Assembly (NCBI GenBank): GCA_002423325.1
Contig: DIVQ01000020.1
Coordinates: 1,888 to 28,284 of the forward strand
Length of the DNA: 26,397 bases
Origin: Anaerolineales bacterium UBA6128
Lineage (GTDB): Bacteria > Chloroflexota > Anaerolineae > UBA1429
Direction: 5' to 3'
This document shows positions 15,042-23,125 of the stretch, in pieces. Every line of letters begins with the position of its first letter. Position 1 is the first letter of the stretch. The notes beneath the pieces were generated by a model, which saw only the letters and a program-made list of their open reading frames with translations, had not been told where the DNA came from and did no database searches. The position numbers and the translations under genes are program-made.

Positions 15042-16142
15042 TCAAGCAGTCGTCGAAACTTCCTGTCCGGGGTGCGCACGGGCCATCCGTACACAGTTGC
15101 CGCCGTCCAGCTTGGCTCTGTACATCGCGCGGTCGGCCGACTCAATCAGTCGCTCCGTGTCGGGGTCACTGCCCGGCTGCCACACGGCCACGCCCACGCT
15201 CACCGTGACGCTCAGCTTGCTGCCGGCAACGGGAAACGCCGCCGCCCCCAATGCATCACAGATGCGCTCAGACAGCGCGCGCGCCTGTGTTGCCGAGGTC
15301 CCCGGAGCCAGGATGGCGAACTCATCGCCTCCATAGCGCGCCACCGCGTCCGCACGCCGCACATGCTCAAGCAGGAATTCGCCGATCTGCCGCAGCAACT
15401 CGTCGCCTGCAAGGTGCCCGAGGGTGTCGTTCACGACCTTGAGCCCGCCCTCGTGGTCAACGTCCAGCATGATCAGCGCCAGGTGCTGCTCGTAGCTCAG
15501 CGCGCGGCTGATCTCTACCGTCAGCAGGTCATCCAGGTGTCCGCGATTGTAGAGCCCTGTCACGCCGTCGCGCACAGCCAAATCGGTGGCGCGCGTGAAA
15601 AGGCGCGCGTTGTTCAGCGCCACCCCCGCGGCCCGAGCCAGGGATTCGAGCGCGTCGAAAGCCTGTCGGCCGGCTGCCACCCTGCTACCGCAGGCCAGCA
15701 GCGCCGCGCCGATCCTCAGCTCTGGCGTCTCGAGCCGCACGGTGCGCACGACGGTTCGGTCGGACGAGCACCCGGCCGCGGCCGGCGCGGCGGTCAGATC
15801 GACCACGTGGATACTCTCCTGCGAGGGGCGATCGCGGGGATCGAGAGCATCGAGCAGCCGCGCGATCATCGCCGCGCACTCTGGCGCGCTGACATTTCGA
15901 TCCGCCCCGCAGAACAGGCTCGGCCCGTCGGGGCTGAATGGCGCGAGCAGCAGCAGCCCGGCCATGCCGCAGCCCGGCAGACTCAGCGCCGTCCGAATCA
16001 GGACGCGCGCGATGTCATCGGAACTGTGCCCCGCCGCGAGAGCGTCGGCCACAAGCCCGAGGTGCTGCAGGCGCGCATCGCCGTCAGCCGACAACCACGC
16101 GCGGTCATCGTCGCTCGGTGCCGGCGCCCGCTTACCCGCCAT
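15042..16142 (-). CDS. diguanylate cyclase, with an N-terminal GAF-like sensor and a GGDEF domain (366 aa)
   Basis: GLYNRGHL, LDVDHEGGLKVVNDTLGHLAGD and RYGGDEF (intact GG[D/E]EF) with RxxD-like context. The N-terminal ~190 aa are assigned as GAF-like by position only. Confidence 0.8.
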   Translation of the reverse strand: MAGKRAPAPSDDDRAWLSADGDARLQHLGLVADALAAGHSSDDIARVLIRTALSLPGCGMAGLLLLAPFSPDGPSLFCGADRNVSAPECAAMIARLLDALDPRDRPSQESIHVVDLTAAPAAAGCSSDRTVVRTVRLETPELRIGAALLACGSRVAAGRQAFDALESLARAAGVALNNARLFTRATDLAVRDGVTGLYNRGHLDDLLTVEISRALSYEQHLALIMLDVDHEGGLKVVNDTLGHLAGDELLRQIGEFLLEHVRRADAVARYGGDEFAILAPGTSATQARALSERICDALGAAAFPVAGSKLSVTVSVGVAVWQPGSDPDTERLIESADRAMYRAKLDGGNCVRMARAHPGQEVSTTA

Positions 16143-16167: not shown

Positions 16168-16848
16168 TCAGCGCGTCAGCACTCGGACGCCCTCAGCACC
16201 GGCTACGATCACGACGTTCGCGATGCCAAGAAACAGGCCCGTGCTGACCACGCCCGGGATGGCATGCAGCACGCATTCCAGTTCGCGCGGCAAAGCAATG
16301 CCCTCCGTCCAGCGGCAATCGATGATGCAGTGCCCCTCATCCGTGGCAAAGGGCCTGTCACCCTCCATACGCGGCGCGGTCTCAGCCCCCGTGCGCGCAA
16401 TCGCCGCCTCAGTGCTGCGCCAGCCAAAGCGCACCACCTCGACCGGCAACCAGGAGCGCTTGCCCAGTCGTGTCACCAGCTTGGTCTCGTCGACGACGAT
16501 GATCTCCTGACGGCTGGCCGCGGCGACAATCTTTTCACGCAGCAGGAAGCCGTGCCGCCCCTTGATCAGATCGAGTCGTGGGTCCACTTCGTCGGCCCCG
16601 TCGATCGTCACGTCGATACGCGGGTGCGCATCCAGCGTCGTCAGCGGGATGCTTTCGGCGCGCGCCAGCGCCTCCGTCTCGTTGGACGTGGCGACCGCCA
16701 CGAGGTCGCCAAGCGTGCCCTGCCTCAGTCGCGCGGCAATCTGCAACGTAGCGTGGCGCGCCGTGGTGCCACTGCCGAGACCCACGACCATCCCGCTCTG
16801 CACCCACTCTACCGCCCGGAGTGCAGCGGCTCGCTTCAGTTCTTCCAA
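16168..16848 (-). CDS. rpiA: ribose-5-phosphate isomerase A, probable TTG start
   Basis: GLGSGTT, DGADEVD and KGRHGFLLREKI motifs. There is no in-frame ATG/GTG between the upstream stop and MEELKRAAAL; the TTG at 16848-16846 is the first start. Confidence 0.8.
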   Translation of the reverse strand: MEELKRAAALRAVEWVQSGMVVGLGSGTTARHATLQIAARLRQGTLGDLVAVATSNETEALARAESIPLTTLDAHPRIDVTIDGADEVDPRLDLIKGRHGFLLREKIVAAASRQEIIVVDETKLVTRLGKRSWLPVEVVRFGWRSTEAAIARTGAETAPRMEGDRPFATDEGHCIIDCRWTEGIALPRELECVLHAIPGVVSTGLFLGIANVVIVAGAEGVRVLTR

Positions 16849-16908: not shown

Positions 16909-18819
16909 CTAGATCTCGCGCCGGCCCAGTTCCATCGCCAGCCCCAGGTAGCCGAGAGTGGCCTCACTCACCTGTTCCAGCGCCACATACTCGTCGACCA
17001 CGTGGGCCAGCCACTCTTCCCCGGGGCCAAAGCCCAGGCACCACACACCCGCCGTGGACAGGTGCCCGCCATCAGTCGTAAACTTCCAGACGCCCACGTC
17101 CAGAGCGCGCCCAAGTGCGCACTCGGCGACCTGCTGCGCATGCAGCAGACGCGGATCATCAGGCGCCACCACAAAGGAGGAGAATGCGCTCAAGGGCGTA
17201 CGCACCAGGCCTGTGTAGCTCACCACGGGGCGCTTGGCCGGCGCGGCCGTGGCCACCACGCCGGGATCGCAGGTCTCTGCCAGCAGGCGATCGACCAGCG
17301 CCTGCGCTTGCTCCAGCGTCTCACCGGGCACGTTGCGCCAGTCGAGATGCACCACCAGCTCGGAAGGGATGACGTTGCTGCTCGTCTGGTCGATGCGGCT
17401 CAGCGTCGGCGCTGCGGTGCTGGCGCCGAAATCGGGATGTTGCGCCATGGGCGCCTCTTGCAGCGCCAGCAGGAAACGCGCCATCGAATAGTAGGGGTTG
17501 ATCGCGCGCTCAGGCGCACTGGCATGCCCCGAGCGCCCGCGCCAGGTGAGCACCAGATCAAAGCGCCCGCGGTGGCCGCGACGCAACGCGTTGCCGGAGG
17601 GCTCGCCGATAACGGCCAGATCAGGGTGCAACCAGGTGAGCAGGTGCTGCATGCCAAAACCGCCCGCCTCTTCGCCCACCACCGCCGCCACATAAACGTC
17701 ACCCGCCGGCACCAGCCCCGCCTGGCACATCAGCCCGCCGGCGCAGACTTGCGCGGCCAACGCCCCCTTGGTGTCCGTGGCGCCTCGTCCCCACAGCCGT
17801 CCGGCGCTGATCTCGCCGTCGAACGGCCCGTGCTCCCAGCGCGAGACGTCGCCCGGGTCTACAATGTCCATGTGCGCGTTCAGACAGGTGGTCAGACCAT
17901 CACCGCCGCGCACACGCCCGACCACGTTGCCGATCTCGTCGCGCCACACATCGTGGTAGCCCAGCGCCAGCATCTCGGCCTGCACCAGGTCGGCCACCTC
18001 ACGCTCCTGACCCGACAGGCTGGCCTTGCTGACCAGCCGCTGCGCCAGGCCGTACAGGCCCTCGCGCGCCCCATCCACAAGCGCTCGCAACTCCCCTGAC
18101 ACTGACCCTCCGTCATCGTTCATGACTCGCCCCGCGCGCTGCTCTGTCGCGTCAGCACGCGCTGCGCCGCTGCCGCGCCCGCGTCGTGGGGGCGGGGCCA
18201 CGTCGATCAGCTGGTAGCCATAGCTGTTGATCACCTCGGTCTCGCCGACGCGCGTGATGCGTTCTGCGTCCAGGCGATACACATGCGTGTGCCCGTGCAG
18301 CAGATAGCGCGGCTTGAACAAGCGAATGAACCAGTGCAGCGCCGGGAAGCCCTGATGGCACAGATCCTCGCAGTCGTGAACGCCACGAGGGGGCGCATGC
18401 GTCACCAGAATGTCGAGCGCTCGTCCGTGGACCATGCGGTTCCAGAGCAGCCTCGGCACCATGCGCCACATCTGCAAACGCATGCCCAGGTCGCTGTACT
18501 GGTGCGGCCCGGGGCGGTAGCGAATCGAGCCCTCCAGCCCGCCGATCAGCAGGCCGTTCTGGCGTACCACCCTCCCATGCAGGTTGGTCCCCCCTTCAGG
18601 CTCCACCTTGATGTCTTCGTGCCCGAAGCGTCGCTGTACCGCGTTGTGGTTGCCAAATACGTACAAGAGCGGCTTGTTCAATACCGAGACGATAAACTCC
18701 ATATAGTCGAAGGGCAGGTCGCCGCAGCTCACTATCAGGTCGACGTCCTTGAAGCGCGTTGCTGCAACCGGACTGTAGACCAGCTCGTGGACAGTATCGG
18801 CGACGGCCAGGATCTTCAT
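16909..18819 (-). CDS. single 636-aa ORF fusing an N-terminal calcineurin-like metallophosphoesterase (aa 1-~210) to a C-terminal M20 peptidase/deacylase (ArgE/DapE/YgeY-like, aa ~233-636)
   Basis: MPP motifs: SCGDL, GNHN and GHTH. M20 motifs: HMDIV, GRGATDTKG and VGEEAGG. The two are joined in-frame by the linker PPPRRGRGSGAARADATEQRAGRV, with an internal Met at 18123. Confidence 0.7.
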   Translation of the reverse strand: MKILAVADTVHELVYSPVAATRFKDVDLIVSCGDLPFDYMEFIVSVLNKPLLYVFGNHNAVQRRFGHEDIKVEPEGGTNLHGRVVRQNGLLIGGLEGSIRYRPGPHQYSDLGMRLQMWRMVPRLLWNRMVHGRALDILVTHAPPRGVHDCEDLCHQGFPALHWFIRLFKPRYLLHGHTHVYRLDAERITRVGETEVINSYGYQLIDVAPPPRRGRGSGAARADATEQRAGRVMNDDGGSVSGELRALVDGAREGLYGLAQRLVSKASLSGQEREVADLVQAEMLALGYHDVWRDEIGNVVGRVRGGDGLTTCLNAHMDIVDPGDVSRWEHGPFDGEISAGRLWGRGATDTKGALAAQVCAGGLMCQAGLVPAGDVYVAAVVGEEAGGFGMQHLLTWLHPDLAVIGEPSGNALRRGHRGRFDLVLTWRGRSGHASAPERAINPYYSMARFLLALQEAPMAQHPDFGASTAAPTLSRIDQTSSNVIPSELVVHLDWRNVPGETLEQAQALVDRLLAETCDPGVVATAAPAKRPVVSYTGLVRTPLSAFSSFVVAPDDPRLLHAQQVAECALGRALDVGVWKFTTDGGHLSTAGVWCLGFGPGEEWLAHVVDEYVALEQVSEATLGYLGLAMELGRREI

Positions 18820-18874
18820 GGGTCATCGTCCTGCTCGGGGCCGTGTGCGCTGTGGCGCAGGCGACTGTATGACG

Positions 18875-18902
18875 ATTATAGCGCCCCGTCGGCCCCGCGC
18901 AA
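18875..18902 (-). promoter_or_regulatory. minus-strand promoter candidate TTGCGC-16-TATAAT for the fusion gene
   Basis: Reverse complement of 18897-18902 and 18875-18880; about 50 nt upstream of ATG 18819. Confidence 0.3.
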
Positions 18903-18967
18903 GTGGGGCATGCTCGACGCCTTCACGCCGCGGCGACGTGCTCCGCAGACAGCCGCACAACCGCAAC

Positions 18968-18995
18968 TTGAAGCCGACGCGCTTTGGCGTACAAT
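18968..18995 (+). promoter_or_regulatory. promoter candidate TTGAAG-16-TACAAT for lspA-rluD
   Basis: Read directly; 50 nt upstream of the lspA start. Confidence 0.4.
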
Positions 18996-19045
18996 CAGGA
19001 CATCGATCAATCACGAGCCAGACACACACAACGAGGGAGCCAACG

Positions 19046-19576
19046 TTGCAACGCAAAACCGACCGGCGCGGCCTGTTCCTGTTCGGCCTCGCCCTGCTGA
19101 TCATAGTCCTGGACCAGTGGAGCAAGACCTGGGTGCGGGCCAACCTGGCGCTCAACGAATCATGGATGCCGATCGCCTGGCTCGACCCCTTCGTGACCTT
19201 TACCCATATCCACAATACAGGTGTAGCCTTTGGCATGTTGCAGAACCGCGGCATTCTGTTCGTCATCGTCAACCTGGTCGTTGTCGCCGCCATCATCGCC
19301 TACTACTGGCGCATCGAGTCCAACTCGTGGCTGCTGCGCATCGCACTGGCCCTTGAGCTGGGCGGCGCGATCGGCAACCTGATCGACCGCCTGGCCCGCG
19401 GCTATGTCACCGACTTTGTCAATGTGCGCTTTTTTGCCGTTTTCAACGTCGCCGATAGCTGCATCACTGTGGGCGCTATCCTGCTGGGCATCTATGCCTT
19501 GTTTCTGGATCGCGATCAGCCGGAGGTGGCTGCGCAGGCCATCTCGGCTGACCAACCTACGCAGGACGCTGACTGA
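19046..19576 (+). CDS. lspA: lipoprotein signal peptidase II, probable TTG start
   Basis: The protein reads LFLFGLALLIIVLDQWSK...NTGVAFG...FNVADSCITVGAILL. A GAGGGAG RBS lies 7 nt before TTG 19046. There is no in-frame ATG/GTG near the N-terminus. Confidence 0.75.
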   Translation: MQRKTDRRGLFLFGLALLIIVLDQWSKTWVRANLALNESWMPIAWLDPFVTFTHIHNTGVAFGMLQNRGILFVIVNLVVVAAIIAYYWRIESNSWLLRIALALELGGAIGNLIDRLARGYVTDFVNVRFFAVFNVADSCITVGAILLGIYALFLDRDQPEVAAQAISADQPTQDAD

Positions 19577-20604: not shown

Positions 20605-21828
20605 ATGACGGACAAAGAGTACCGCGTCCGAGCGGTACGCTGCGATCACCTCACCGAGGACGAACAGGTCTACCAAGCTCTACGCCGCGCCACCGATCCT
20701 CTCGATCGCTCCTGGGATGTGCTGACGCGCGCCAAGCGCATCACCGTCAAGTTCAACCAGGCCTGGGCGCCCGAGCGCAGGGTTGTGATGGACGGCCAGT
20801 CGCAGGAACTGGTCAGTGAGAAGGTGGCCCGCGCCGTCCTGCGCTTGCTGCGCGAGCGCACCAGGGCCAACATTGCCTGTGTCGAGATCTCGACCGGTAT
20901 GCGTTATCCCGCGCAGTTCGAGAGCTTTATGACGCTGCTGCCCGTGTTGCGCGAGTTCGATGTCCCAGTGATCGACGGCAACCGGCCGCCCATGCGCGTC
21001 TGCCAGGTCCCGGGCGGCGGCAGCATGTTCAAGCAGTACACACTGCCCTCGTGCGTCGTCGACACGGACGCCTTCATATCGGTCTCCAAGCTCAAGAACC
21101 ACCGCTTTATGGGCGTCACCGCCTGTCTCAAGAACCTGTTCGGCCTGCCGCCGCTCGAGCCTCTGGGGCGCTATCGCGGCTATTTCCACCACTTTATGCG
21201 CCTGCCGAACGTGCTGGTGGACCTGGGTCAGATGGCGCGGCCCGCGCTCAACATTGTGGATGCGCTCGTGACGCAGGCGGGCTCGGAATGGCACGGACAG
21301 GGCCGCGTCAGCGATACGCTGATCGCCGGTGACCACGTTATCGCCACCGATGCCTGCGCCGTTCACCTGATGGGCTATGACACACGCGCCGACTGGCCCA
21401 CCGAGCCCTTCGGCAGCGACAACAACTGGCTGATGATCGCCGAACGTTGCGGGTTCGGCACGGCGCGTCTGGAGGACGTCGACTTTCGGTCCGAGGTGCA
21501 GGCGCCCATCGGCCAGTTCTTCCGCGAGGAATGGGTCCCGCGAGCGCGGCAGATCAGTTGGCGCCGCACCATGTCGCAGCAGGCGCTCTATTACCGCGAC
21601 CACCCCGAAGAGTTCGCCCAGTATGCGGGCGAGTACATGCTGCTGCAGGACCGTCAGGTCGTCTGGCACAGCCGAGACAGCAACCCCGGTCAAAGCCGCA
21701 CCGCCCTCTCGGCACAGAACGAGGACAGCGGCATGTGGATGAAGTACGTCGATCCCGATGAGGCCGAGGGAGAACACTATGAGGTCTATGAGCGTGCGCT
21801 CAGTCACCTCGACGAACTCGGCCTGTAG
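20605..21828 (+). CDS. DUF362-domain protein, paralog A (407 aa), with a ~100-aa C-terminal extension
   Basis: GGAGGG RBS. The DUF362-like motifs are KLKNHRFMGVTACLKNLFGLPP, NIVDALVTQAGSEWHGQG and IAGDHVIATDACAVHLMG. The track ORF 20059-21828 has an untranslated-looking upstream part. Confidence 0.7.
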   Translation: MTDKEYRVRAVRCDHLTEDEQVYQALRRATDPLDRSWDVLTRAKRITVKFNQAWAPERRVVMDGQSQELVSEKVARAVLRLLRERTRANIACVEISTGMRYPAQFESFMTLLPVLREFDVPVIDGNRPPMRVCQVPGGGSMFKQYTLPSCVVDTDAFISVSKLKNHRFMGVTACLKNLFGLPPLEPLGRYRGYFHHFMRLPNVLVDLGQMARPALNIVDALVTQAGSEWHGQGRVSDTLIAGDHVIATDACAVHLMGYDTRADWPTEPFGSDNNWLMIAERCGFGTARLEDVDFRSEVQAPIGQFFREEWVPRARQISWRRTMSQQALYYRDHPEEFAQYAGEYMLLQDRQVVWHSRDSNPGQSRTALSAQNEDSGMWMKYVDPDEAEGEHYEVYERALSHLDELGL

Positions 21829-21901: not shown

Positions 21902-23125
21902 ATGACCGCAAAACACGATTACCGCGTCCGCGCAGTGCACTGTGACCACTTGGCCGATGAGGAGACGATCTACCAGTCCCTGGTGCGCGCCACCGATCCG
22001 CTCGACGCGGCTTGGGCCAAACTCGAGACCGCCAAGCGCATCGGAATAAAGTTCAACCAGGACTATAACGTCCTGCGTGTCTTTGAGAGCAACTATCAGG
22101 AGCTTGTGAGCGAACCGGTGGCGCGCGCCGTGTTGCGCCGGCTGCGTGAGCGCACCAGCGCGGAGCTGATCTGCTCCTCGATCAGCGTCTTTCGCAAGGA
22201 ACAGTCTCACGAGCCGGACGCCTCCGAGCATCTCGGCCAGTTGCTGCGCGAGTTCGGCGTGCGGTTCGTGGCGGGCGACCTGCCCCCGCACAGCACGGTA
22301 CAGGTGCCCGGCGGCGGGCAAATGTTCCGCCAGTACCTCCTGCCCACCGAATCCGTCGATGTTGACGCCTTTATTTCGGTCGCCAAGATGAAGAACCACG
22401 CCTTTATGGGCGTCACGGCCTGCCTCAAGAACCTCTTTGGCCTGATGCCCATGGAGCCGCACGGCCGCGCGCGCCAGTATTACCACCACCTGGTGCGCAT
22501 GCCCTACATGCTGGCCGACATCGGACGTATCTTTAGCCCGGCGCTCAACATCGTCGATGGCCTGGTGGGGCAGGCCGAGCGCGAGTGGGGCGGCCAGGGG
22601 CGCATCGGCAACTGCCTCATCGCCGGCGACAATGTCATTGCTACCGATGCCTGCACCGCGCACCTGATGGGCCACGATCCCGAGACCGACTGGCCCAACG
22701 AGCCCTTCCTGCGCGACCGCAACGCGCTCAAGACCGCCGCTGAGGGCGGCTTTGGCAGCGTCAACCTGAACGAGATCGATTGGCAGTCAGAGGTCGTCAG
22801 CCCGGTAAACCAGTTCTTCTGCCAACAGGTGGACTCATCCGAGACCACCATCAGTTGGCGACGCACGACCTGCGAGCAGGCGCTGTATTACCGCGACCAT
22901 CGCGAGCAGTTCGCCCAGTACGCCGGTGAGTATATTCTGCTCTACAAGAACAAGGTGATCTGGCACAACACGAACAGCAACTTTGGGGGCAGCCGTCGCG
23001 ACCTGGCAGCTGATGACCCGACCAGCGCGATCTTTATGAAAAAGGTCGATCCGGAGGAGGCGGAGGGCGAGCACTTTGAGGTCTACGAGCACACGCTCGA
23101 GCAGATGGAGGCCCTGGGCCTCTAG
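21902..23125 (+). CDS. DUF362-domain protein, paralog B (407 aa), about 55-60% identical to paralog A
   Basis: GGGGGAG RBS. It has the same motif set (KMKNHAFMGVTACLKNLFGLMP, NIVDGLVGQAEREWGGQG, IAGDNVIATDACTAHLMG) and the same C-terminal tail (..KVDPEEAEGEHFEVYEH..LGL). Confidence 0.7.
   Translation: MTAKHDYRVRAVHCDHLADEETIYQSLVRATDPLDAAWAKLETAKRIGIKFNQDYNVLRVFESNYQELVSEPVARAVLRRLRERTSAELICSSISVFRKEQSHEPDASEHLGQLLREFGVRFVAGDLPPHSTVQVPGGGQMFRQYLLPTESVDVDAFISVAKMKNHAFMGVTACLKNLFGLMPMEPHGRARQYYHHLVRMPYMLADIGRIFSPALNIVDGLVGQAEREWGGQGRIGNCLIAGDNVIATDACTAHLMGHDPETDWPNEPFLRDRNALKTAAEGGFGSVNLNEIDWQSEVVSPVNQFFCQQVDSSETTISWRRTTCEQALYYRDHREQFAQYAGEYILLYKNKVIWHNTNSNFGGSRRDLAADDPTSAIFMKKVDPEEAEGEHFEVYEHTLEQMEALGL

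Follow-up and report, generated by a model that had tools for sequence, protein, structure and literature searches.

The stretch of DNA analysed here, referred to as the window, comprises 26,397 nucleotides (nt) of contig DIVQ01000020.1 from Anaerolineales bacterium UBA6128 (Chloroflexota). On its minus strand, at positions 16909-18819, the ORF list places a single uninterrupted open reading frame (ORF) of 636 codons, from the ATG at 18819-18817 to the TAG at 16911-16909, that spans two enzymes, a calcineurin-like metallophosphoesterase (MPP) and an M20-type amidohydrolase. Its product is identical to protein P0001, encoded on the metagenome contig ena:ERZ27315036:k141_4139. One 636-amino-acid (aa) ORF holding an MPP and a complete M20 enzyme had been described in the first-pass annotation of this DNA, a description borne out by the ORF list, Pfam and NCBIfam, and rpiA and a GGDEF gene lie downstream as that annotation had stated (Table 1). 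The 636-aa ORF is not an established bifunctional enzyme; it is either an accidental young fusion of two genes or an assembly error.

Domain composition of the fused ORF

The N-terminal half matched the Pfam family PF00149 (Metallophos) over residues 1-181 with 32.2 bits, above the gathering cutoff of 21.5, and PF12850 with 29.3 bits against a cutoff of 27. The canonical metal-binding motifs I-V of MPPs are D-x-H, G-D-x-x-D, G-N-H-[DE], H and G-H-x-H. When 61 members of the MPP family were aligned, D8, G33-D34, G56-N57-H58, H141 and H175-G176-H177-x-H179 were invariant, and the position of the motif-I histidine (DxH) was occupied by H, D, N or V. The MPP motifs quoted at first pass are thus real and invariant in these 61 sequences; to call them a full set was slightly generous, since the motif-I histidine is not conserved.

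Folded alone with AlphaFold2 (AF2), the MPP domain reached a predicted local distance difference test (pLDDT) value of 92 and a predicted template modelling (pTM) score of 0.90, with confidence dropping after about residue 206. The top 29 matches of this model in a Foldseek search of the PDB at E<=1e-3 were all MPPs, including 1uf3, 2yvt, Dbr1, MPPED2, SbcD, GpdQ and LpxH, which places it in the four-layer alpha/beta-sandwich fold of the superfamily. At the level of sequence, the MPP family profile matched nothing in the PDB at E<=0.01. As the fold search yields generic MPPs only, it offers no clue to the substrate. Small standalone calcineurin-like phosphoesterases (TT1561, 1uf3; aq_1956, 2yvt; MPPED2, 3rl3; Dbr1, 5k78) share with the window MPP its fold (Foldseek probability 1.0, TM score about 0.6), the conserved motifs II-V and a size of about 210 aa, but their identity to it is only 12-19% and the motif-I histidine is not conserved in the window's family. 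These features mark the MPP half as a predicted small phosphoesterase, an ordinary member of the calcineurin-like superfamily. Assignment to a defence system was rejected, the match to PDC-S10 in a defence-system library (34 bits) being weak and of a generic MPP kind. Two larger proteins of the MPP family, P0316 (793 aa) and P0330 (803 aa), carry an N-terminal MPP, about 450 aa without assigned domain and C-terminal tandem Usp domains.

The C-terminal half matched PF01546 (Peptidase_M20) over residues 312-627 with 81 bits (gathering threshold 24.6) and PF07687 (M20_dimer) over residues 415-518 with 60.7 bits (gathering threshold 21). Residues 248-630 matched positions 10-394 of the 399-position NCBIfam YgeY model, so that the M20 half is full length. 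In DapE, the co-catalytic metal ligands and the general-base glutamate are H67, D100, E134/E135, E163 and H349. The M20 motifs quoted at first pass are also real: H316, D318, D349, E383, E384, E406 and H606 were invariant among 46 aligned M20 sequences, and the motifs aligned with HMDVV, GRGATDMK, VGEEVG, IGEPT and LPHQVDEYV of the DapE structure 7uoi. With ArgE/DapE/YgeY-type M20 amidohydrolases (PF01546 plus PF07687; 7uoi) the window protein shares the two-domain M20 architecture with a dimerisation domain and the same ligands (H316, D349, E383/E384, E406 and H606), whereas the N-terminal MPP extension was found in the window only and in none of the other M20 members. The M20 half is accordingly best described as a putative ArgE/DapE/YgeY-like amidohydrolase, an ordinary member of its superfamily.

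Membership in the YgeY or DapE groups was rejected on score and on gene context. The scores fell below the curated model cutoffs both for YgeY (NF009555, 246.2 against 321; TIGR03526, 190.1 against 321.5) and for the ArgE/DapE deacylase family (TIGR01910, 175.9 against 217.6). The YgeY selenium-metabolism-linked hydrolase is associated in genomes with xdh/ygeW/ygeX and SDMH accessory genes (PMC2276186). None of these marker genes was found within the 26-kb window.

Occurrence of the fusion and state of the junction in relatives

The full-length protein was searched against 5.8 billion protein clusters and the best 120 matches were examined. The only fused protein among them was P0001, the product of the window contig itself, whose cluster has a single member, from NCBI and ENA. 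The remaining 119 were M20-only proteins of 352-432 aa; those closest to the window (84, 83 and 75% identity) are standalone proteins of 370-399 aa. A search with the MPP half returned more than 4,800 relatives, of which the best 120 were all 202-257 aa long and lacked an M20 domain. With phmmer, run against 1.84 billion representatives, the best 150 matches covered either residues ~243-634 or residues ~1-210, never both, and the longer MPP matches among the representatives had Usp or unassigned sequence attached. The word-indexed search with the MPP alone missed P0001 itself, and the library of 50%-identity representatives also lacked it. Since fused members may hide behind unfused representatives, absence in such searches weighs less, and a survey of synteny was therefore added.

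GTDB species representatives carried the MPP family at 80 loci, with an M20 gene directly downstream in seven and a fusion in none. All seven belong to Anaerolineae and lie within the 12 best MPP matches. Among the 12 MPP-M20 loci considered, the window's own contig was the sole fused one, and the 11 syntenic relatives have two separate genes, the arrangement that the first-pass annotation had named as speaking against a genuine fusion. Recurrence of the combined architecture in independent genomes was thus found in 0/120, 0/120 and 0/150 best matches and at 0/11 other syntenic loci, and a literature search found no paper on an MPP+M20 fusion. Among the collections searched the architecture is a singleton, in keeping with the first-pass remark that the combination is not known as a standard one.

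Five unfused Chloroflexota pairs allowed the junction to be compared: L001 and L002 (Logan contigs), L003 (GCA_012515565.1, JAAYYC010000328.1), L004 (ERZ27247100, k141_402038) and L092. They share with the window the gene order lspA (divergent), MPP, M20, rpiA and GGDEF as well as the GGAGGG motif and GTG start of M20, and by tblastn their MPP is 64-85% and their M20 75-85% identical to the window's. The two are separate genes in all five (MPP of 219-242 aa, M20 of 396-406 aa), divided either by a spacer of 51-75 nt with two to three stops in frame or by a TGA that overlaps the GTG, whereas the window lacks any stop at this place.

Three states of the junction can be told apart. In L001 and L004 both genes are in the same frame and separated by a spacer of 51-75 nt with two (L001) or three (L004) in-frame stops. 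In L003 and L092 the MPP frame reads through the entire spacer to a TGA that overlaps the M20 GTG, which implies translational coupling; two independent assemblies thus document that the stop in this spacer can be lost naturally. In the window the frame is again shared and the stop is absent; the position of the L001 TAG is CAG, and the TGA lies out of frame after small indels. Over 3.7 kb the DNA of L001 and that of the window are 80% identical with 27 gap openings, and the alignment of the spacer is ambiguous. The MPP C-terminal tail and the spacer are thus evolutionarily fluid, and the window is one small step from states present in independent assemblies. The GTGA overlap (L003:4890-4896; L092:1762-1765) belongs to two assemblies of a sister lineage in which the MPP tail ...EPGGGALA.ECEQADAERSEGR is conserved. 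For the L003 M20 gene, the NCBI call of 370 aa has probably been given too late a start, as the L092 protein in its 90% cluster has 406 aa.

The two halves could be delimited against these relatives. Translated searches (tblastn) with the relatives' MPPs stopped at position 18178 of the window, that is, at residue 214. At first pass the M20 enzyme had been taken to begin near Met233; it starts instead at GTG codon 240 (18102-18100). Residue 1 of the L001 M20 aligned to 18102, the M20 gene calls of L001, L002, L004 and L092 start at the GTG matching this codon, and in the full-length AF2 model the M20 fold opens with a helix at residues 240-250 (pLDDT 95-99). That model was built with M20 rows only in its alignment and the MPP was folded separately; its MPP half therefore lacked alignment depth, which accounts for the low pLDDT there, a value that has no bearing on foldability.

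The 75 nt between the two halves (18177-18103) had no homology to any relative. GC at codon positions 1, 2 and 3 was 0.81, 0.70 and 0.70 in the linker versus 0.72, 0.46 and 0.82 in the domains, and the linker difference GC3-GC2 of 0.00 lay below that of every 27-codon segment of either domain; neither GC periodicity nor homology to relatives gave a sign of coding-type evolution. GGAGG(G/A) stands 2-3 nt ahead of the M20 GTG in five of five aligned junctions, and the window keeps both GGAGGG and GTG. Because it has no homolog, a noncoding composition and a retained GGAGGG plus GTG, and because the M20 fold begins at residue 240, the linker is the former intergenic spacer including its ribosome-binding site. 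The open frame of 25 codons across it is expected by chance, as 63% of shuffled 75-nt spacers (P ~0.63) had no stop in the fused frame. No secondary structure was predicted for the linker region (residues ~205-239), and pLDDT was below 50 over residues 194-236 in the full-length model. As modelled, a disordered linker of about 25-35 residues would be sterically compatible with two independently folded domains, which is the outcome that the structural check proposed at first pass had been meant to assess. Predicted tryptic peptides that span it include ADATEQR and VMNDDGGSVSGELR.

Table 1. Positions of the parts of the fused ORF and of its neighbours in the window
Feature	Residues	Positions	Strand	Basis
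MPP part	1-214	18178-18819	-	Pfam, family alignment and fold; orthologous standalone proteins have 202-257 aa
Linker (translated MPP-M20 intergenic spacer)	215-239	18103-18177	-	
M20 (ArgE/DapE/YgeY-like) deacylase part, with stop	240-636	16909-18102	-	Pfam, NCBIfam
GGAGGG Shine-Dalgarno-like motif of the M20 gene, kept within the fused ORF		18106-18111	-	Conserved in the junctions of relatives
GTG codon 240, orthologous to the start of standalone M20 genes	240	18100-18102	-	Alignment to relatives
Out-of-frame TGA at which the MPP would end after a +1-nt shift upstream		18152-18154	-	Codon coordinates
rpiA (ribose-5-phosphate isomerase A), next gene, same direction		16168-16848	-	226/226 aa aligned, 85% to L001
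GGDEF diguanylate cyclase, last of the conserved gene run		15042-16142	-	PF00990, 145.9 bits
lspA (signal peptidase II), divergent upstream neighbour		19046-19576	+	176/176 aa aligned, 87% to L001

The divergent lspA/MPP intergenic region measures 226 nt (18820-19045). On the minus strand no promoter or terminator consensus was found in or near the junction, including between the two halves, and no sigma-70 consensus was seen; Rfam families were absent from the window. The window further encodes PGK, PFK, His_Phos_1, fucosidase, ZIP, DUF6259, Dus, Band_7, bPH_2, rluD, two DUF362 proteins, CMD and ArsR, besides GGDEF, rpiA and lspA. The two DUF362 paralogs stand in tandem on the plus strand (20605-21825 and 21902-23125), have 407 aa each and are 79% and 56% identical to one DUF362 protein of L003, where the arrangement is kept. 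The GGDEF protein of the window (366 aa) has no receiver domain. At the same position L004 and L092 encode a response-regulator-GGDEF protein of 488-492 aa; as its identity to the window protein is just 45-49% and limited to the C-terminal part, the sensory N-terminus has been swapped.

Origin of the fused frame

We favour, with confidence and doubt about evenly balanced, a young and lineage-specific fusion that joined two adjacent genes of an operon in frame through loss of the upstream stop. The ancestral order would have been that of the relatives, with lspA diverging from MPP, a short spacer, M20, rpiA and GGDEF. The ancestral MPP would have stopped a few codons past its conserved end (...YGYQ.I.. 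PP.RR), and M20 would have started at its own GTG behind GGAGGG. In the two nearest arrangements MPP and M20 already share a frame. In the window no in-frame stop is left in the spacer, with CAG in place of the L001 TAG and the TGA put out of frame by small indels within GC-rich sequence of low complexity. On its way from the MPP ATG into M20, a ribosome would then translate the 75-nt spacer, giving a disordered linker of 25 residues.

On this reading of a stop loss, transcription would run from the 226-nt divergent region through MPP-M20, rpiA and GGDEF, and ribosomes starting at ATG 18819 would produce an MPP-linker-M20 protein of about 70 kDa. Internal initiation at the retained ribosome-binding site and GTG 18102 would probably also give free M20, and no free MPP would be made. 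Both metallo-hydrolase domains would be expected to fold and act independently. If M20 forms dimers by way of the lid domain, in the manner of DapE and ArgE, two MPP domains would be brought together. The fusion would have little or no effect on fitness and would not be a bifunctional design shaped by selection.

Stop-loss fusions of the kind known as 'Rosetta stone' composite proteins resemble the window in that neighbours on the same strand and in the same frame are joined by a translated former spacer. Classical Rosetta-stone reasoning draws on fusions found repeatedly in different genomes. Since the fusion in the window is a singleton and its spacer still looks noncoding, it carries little information on functional linkage.

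Several observations weigh against a young fusion and bear on the possibility that the genome holds two genes after all, with the MPP stop shifted out of frame in the contig by an indel error of 1 nt (or 3n±1) or by a strain-chimeric consensus; we consider such an artefact the main rival, possible if somewhat doubtful. The junction is known from one assembly only, a MEGAHIT-style short-read metagenome contig of 41.9 kb (k141_4139, as above) that has also been deposited as a metagenome-assembled genome, and the one-member cluster of P0001 fits this origin. No independent copy was found in the JGI metagenomes, where an exact 26-mer of the junction had 0 matches and a protein scan returned only M20s of 24-31% identity. 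Within the 99-nt junction stretch, an MPP of natural length (222-238 aa) would be restored by deletion of a single base in 80 of 99 cases and by insertion of one in 87 of 99. In 48 of the 99 insertions the product would be a 222-aa MPP ending at an out-of-frame TGA, which the first-pass annotation had put at 18160-18158 and which actually lies at 18154-18152; further out-of-frame TGAs occur at 18122-18120 and 18115-18113. The junction (GCGGCAGCGGCGCAGCGCG) is GC-rich and of low complexity, a setting prone to consensus errors from mixed strains, and it holds extra bases relative to the relatives. All 11 syntenic relatives are split, and the noncoding composition of the linker with its retained ribosome-binding site and GTG is exactly what an untranslated spacer would show. 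The features of the junction would fit a very recent real mutation and an artefact alike, and expression of the fused protein, its folding and internal initiation are matters that we infer.

An assembly artefact has difficulties of its own. Per base, Illumina/MEGAHIT contigs rarely contain indel errors, and the target is shorter than 100 nt. The five neighbouring genes lspA, rluD, DUF362, rpiA and bPH_2 align full length and in a single frame to their relatives, so that the contig is not visibly prone to frameshifts. The spacer differs from its nearest relative by several indels and the TAG-to-CAG change, and no single error relative to known sequence suffices; moreover, real read-through of the same spacer occurs in L003 and L092. 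The merger of two adjacent genes by a 1-nt indel, as suggested at first pass, therefore holds as far as the merger goes, the relatives being split, but it does not reduce to one indel against any available reference: with the nearest relative about 80% identical in DNA, and with several spacer indels plus the TAG-to-CAG change, a single-indel origin cannot be assigned. Prior rates of real fusions and of assembly errors, as estimated from Illumina indel error rates and from lineage-specific fusions, are both low and comparable.

Least probable is a selected bifunctional enzyme in which MPP and M20 serve one substrate or pathway, for example by phosphoester and then amide hydrolysis, and in which the fusion was fixed for channelling or co-regulation; we regard this as very unlikely. 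Adjacency of MPP and M20 with short or overlapping junctions does recur in the Anaerolineae clade (seven GTDB species and five metagenome contigs), the GTGA overlap of L003 and L092 implies translational coupling, all catalytic residues are kept in both halves and the disordered linker fits two folded domains sterically. Against it, the fusion has no second example in the collections searched and no published description of the combination was found, the linker carries no coding signature, and the internal ribosome-binding site and start are intact. The adjacency itself is dispensable, as described in the next section, and the novel bifunctional enzyme that the first-pass annotation had put forward is thus unsupported as an established architecture. 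Programmed frameshifting or stop-codon read-through was rejected, because the ORF is continuous and offers neither a stop in frame nor a shift of frame that would have to be overcome.

Neighbours of the MPP family and significance of the fusion

In the second-closest MPP relative, P0122 (73% identity; L091:95-1047), rpiA follows directly after MPP without an M20 gene, and L012 and L029 are arranged likewise; M20 is therefore a variable insertion in an otherwise conserved gene run. The conserved downstream partner of MPP is another one, a DUF4032-like protein of about 310 aa present at 55 of 84 loci (a subset of L013-L085) in three phyla (Spirochaetota, Actinomycetota and Chloroflexota). The median distance between the two genes is -3 nt, which implies that stop and start overlap. 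The match of this partner to DUF4032 is weak (25 bits; cutoff 23.8), with L079:4753-5685 as an example. The DUF4032-like gene is absent from the window. From this gene context MPP and M20 would be functionally linked only weakly, if at all, and their pairing looks incidental.

Two other associations were seen around MPP genes of spirochaetes. Eleven Treponema/Spirochaetaceae loci (L034:5721-6620 and 10 others) encode an M28-like peptidase (PF04389, 41 bits; of the MH clan, as is M20) some 1.8 kb downstream of MPP, with the DUF4032-like gene and a gene for a PdxK-like kinase in between; the proximity could reflect mere synteny or else another loose association of MPP with a metallopeptidase. 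At 35 Spirochaete loci (for example L014:2578-3945), a 455-aa tetratricopeptide-repeat protein with a C-terminal Mrr_cat restriction-endonuclease-like domain is encoded directly upstream of MPP, at a median distance of 6 nt.

The stop-loss mechanism is textbook and not new, a singleton carries no evidence of function, and until reads confirm the junction, annotators should not pass the ORF on under the label 'bifunctional MPP/M20 enzyme'. If the junction were correct and the protein made and kept, it would be the only known covalent link of the ~210-aa MPP family to an M20 amidohydrolase and would serve, though this is very unlikely, as a Rosetta-stone hint at a common phosphorylated, N-acylated metabolite on which both enzymes act in the Anaerolineae clade. 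If real, the fusion would also be a snapshot of the origin of a multidomain enzyme, in which co-transcribed neighbours in the same frame are joined by the loss of one stop, with the spacer turned into a disordered linker and the ribosome-binding site and start codon of the downstream gene surviving as relics within the new ORF. The more interesting by-product of the analysis is the MPP family itself: it occurs widely in Chloroflexota, Spirochaetota and Actinomycetota, sequence comparison finds no relative of it in the PDB, and its translation is usually coupled to that of a DUF4032-like protein.

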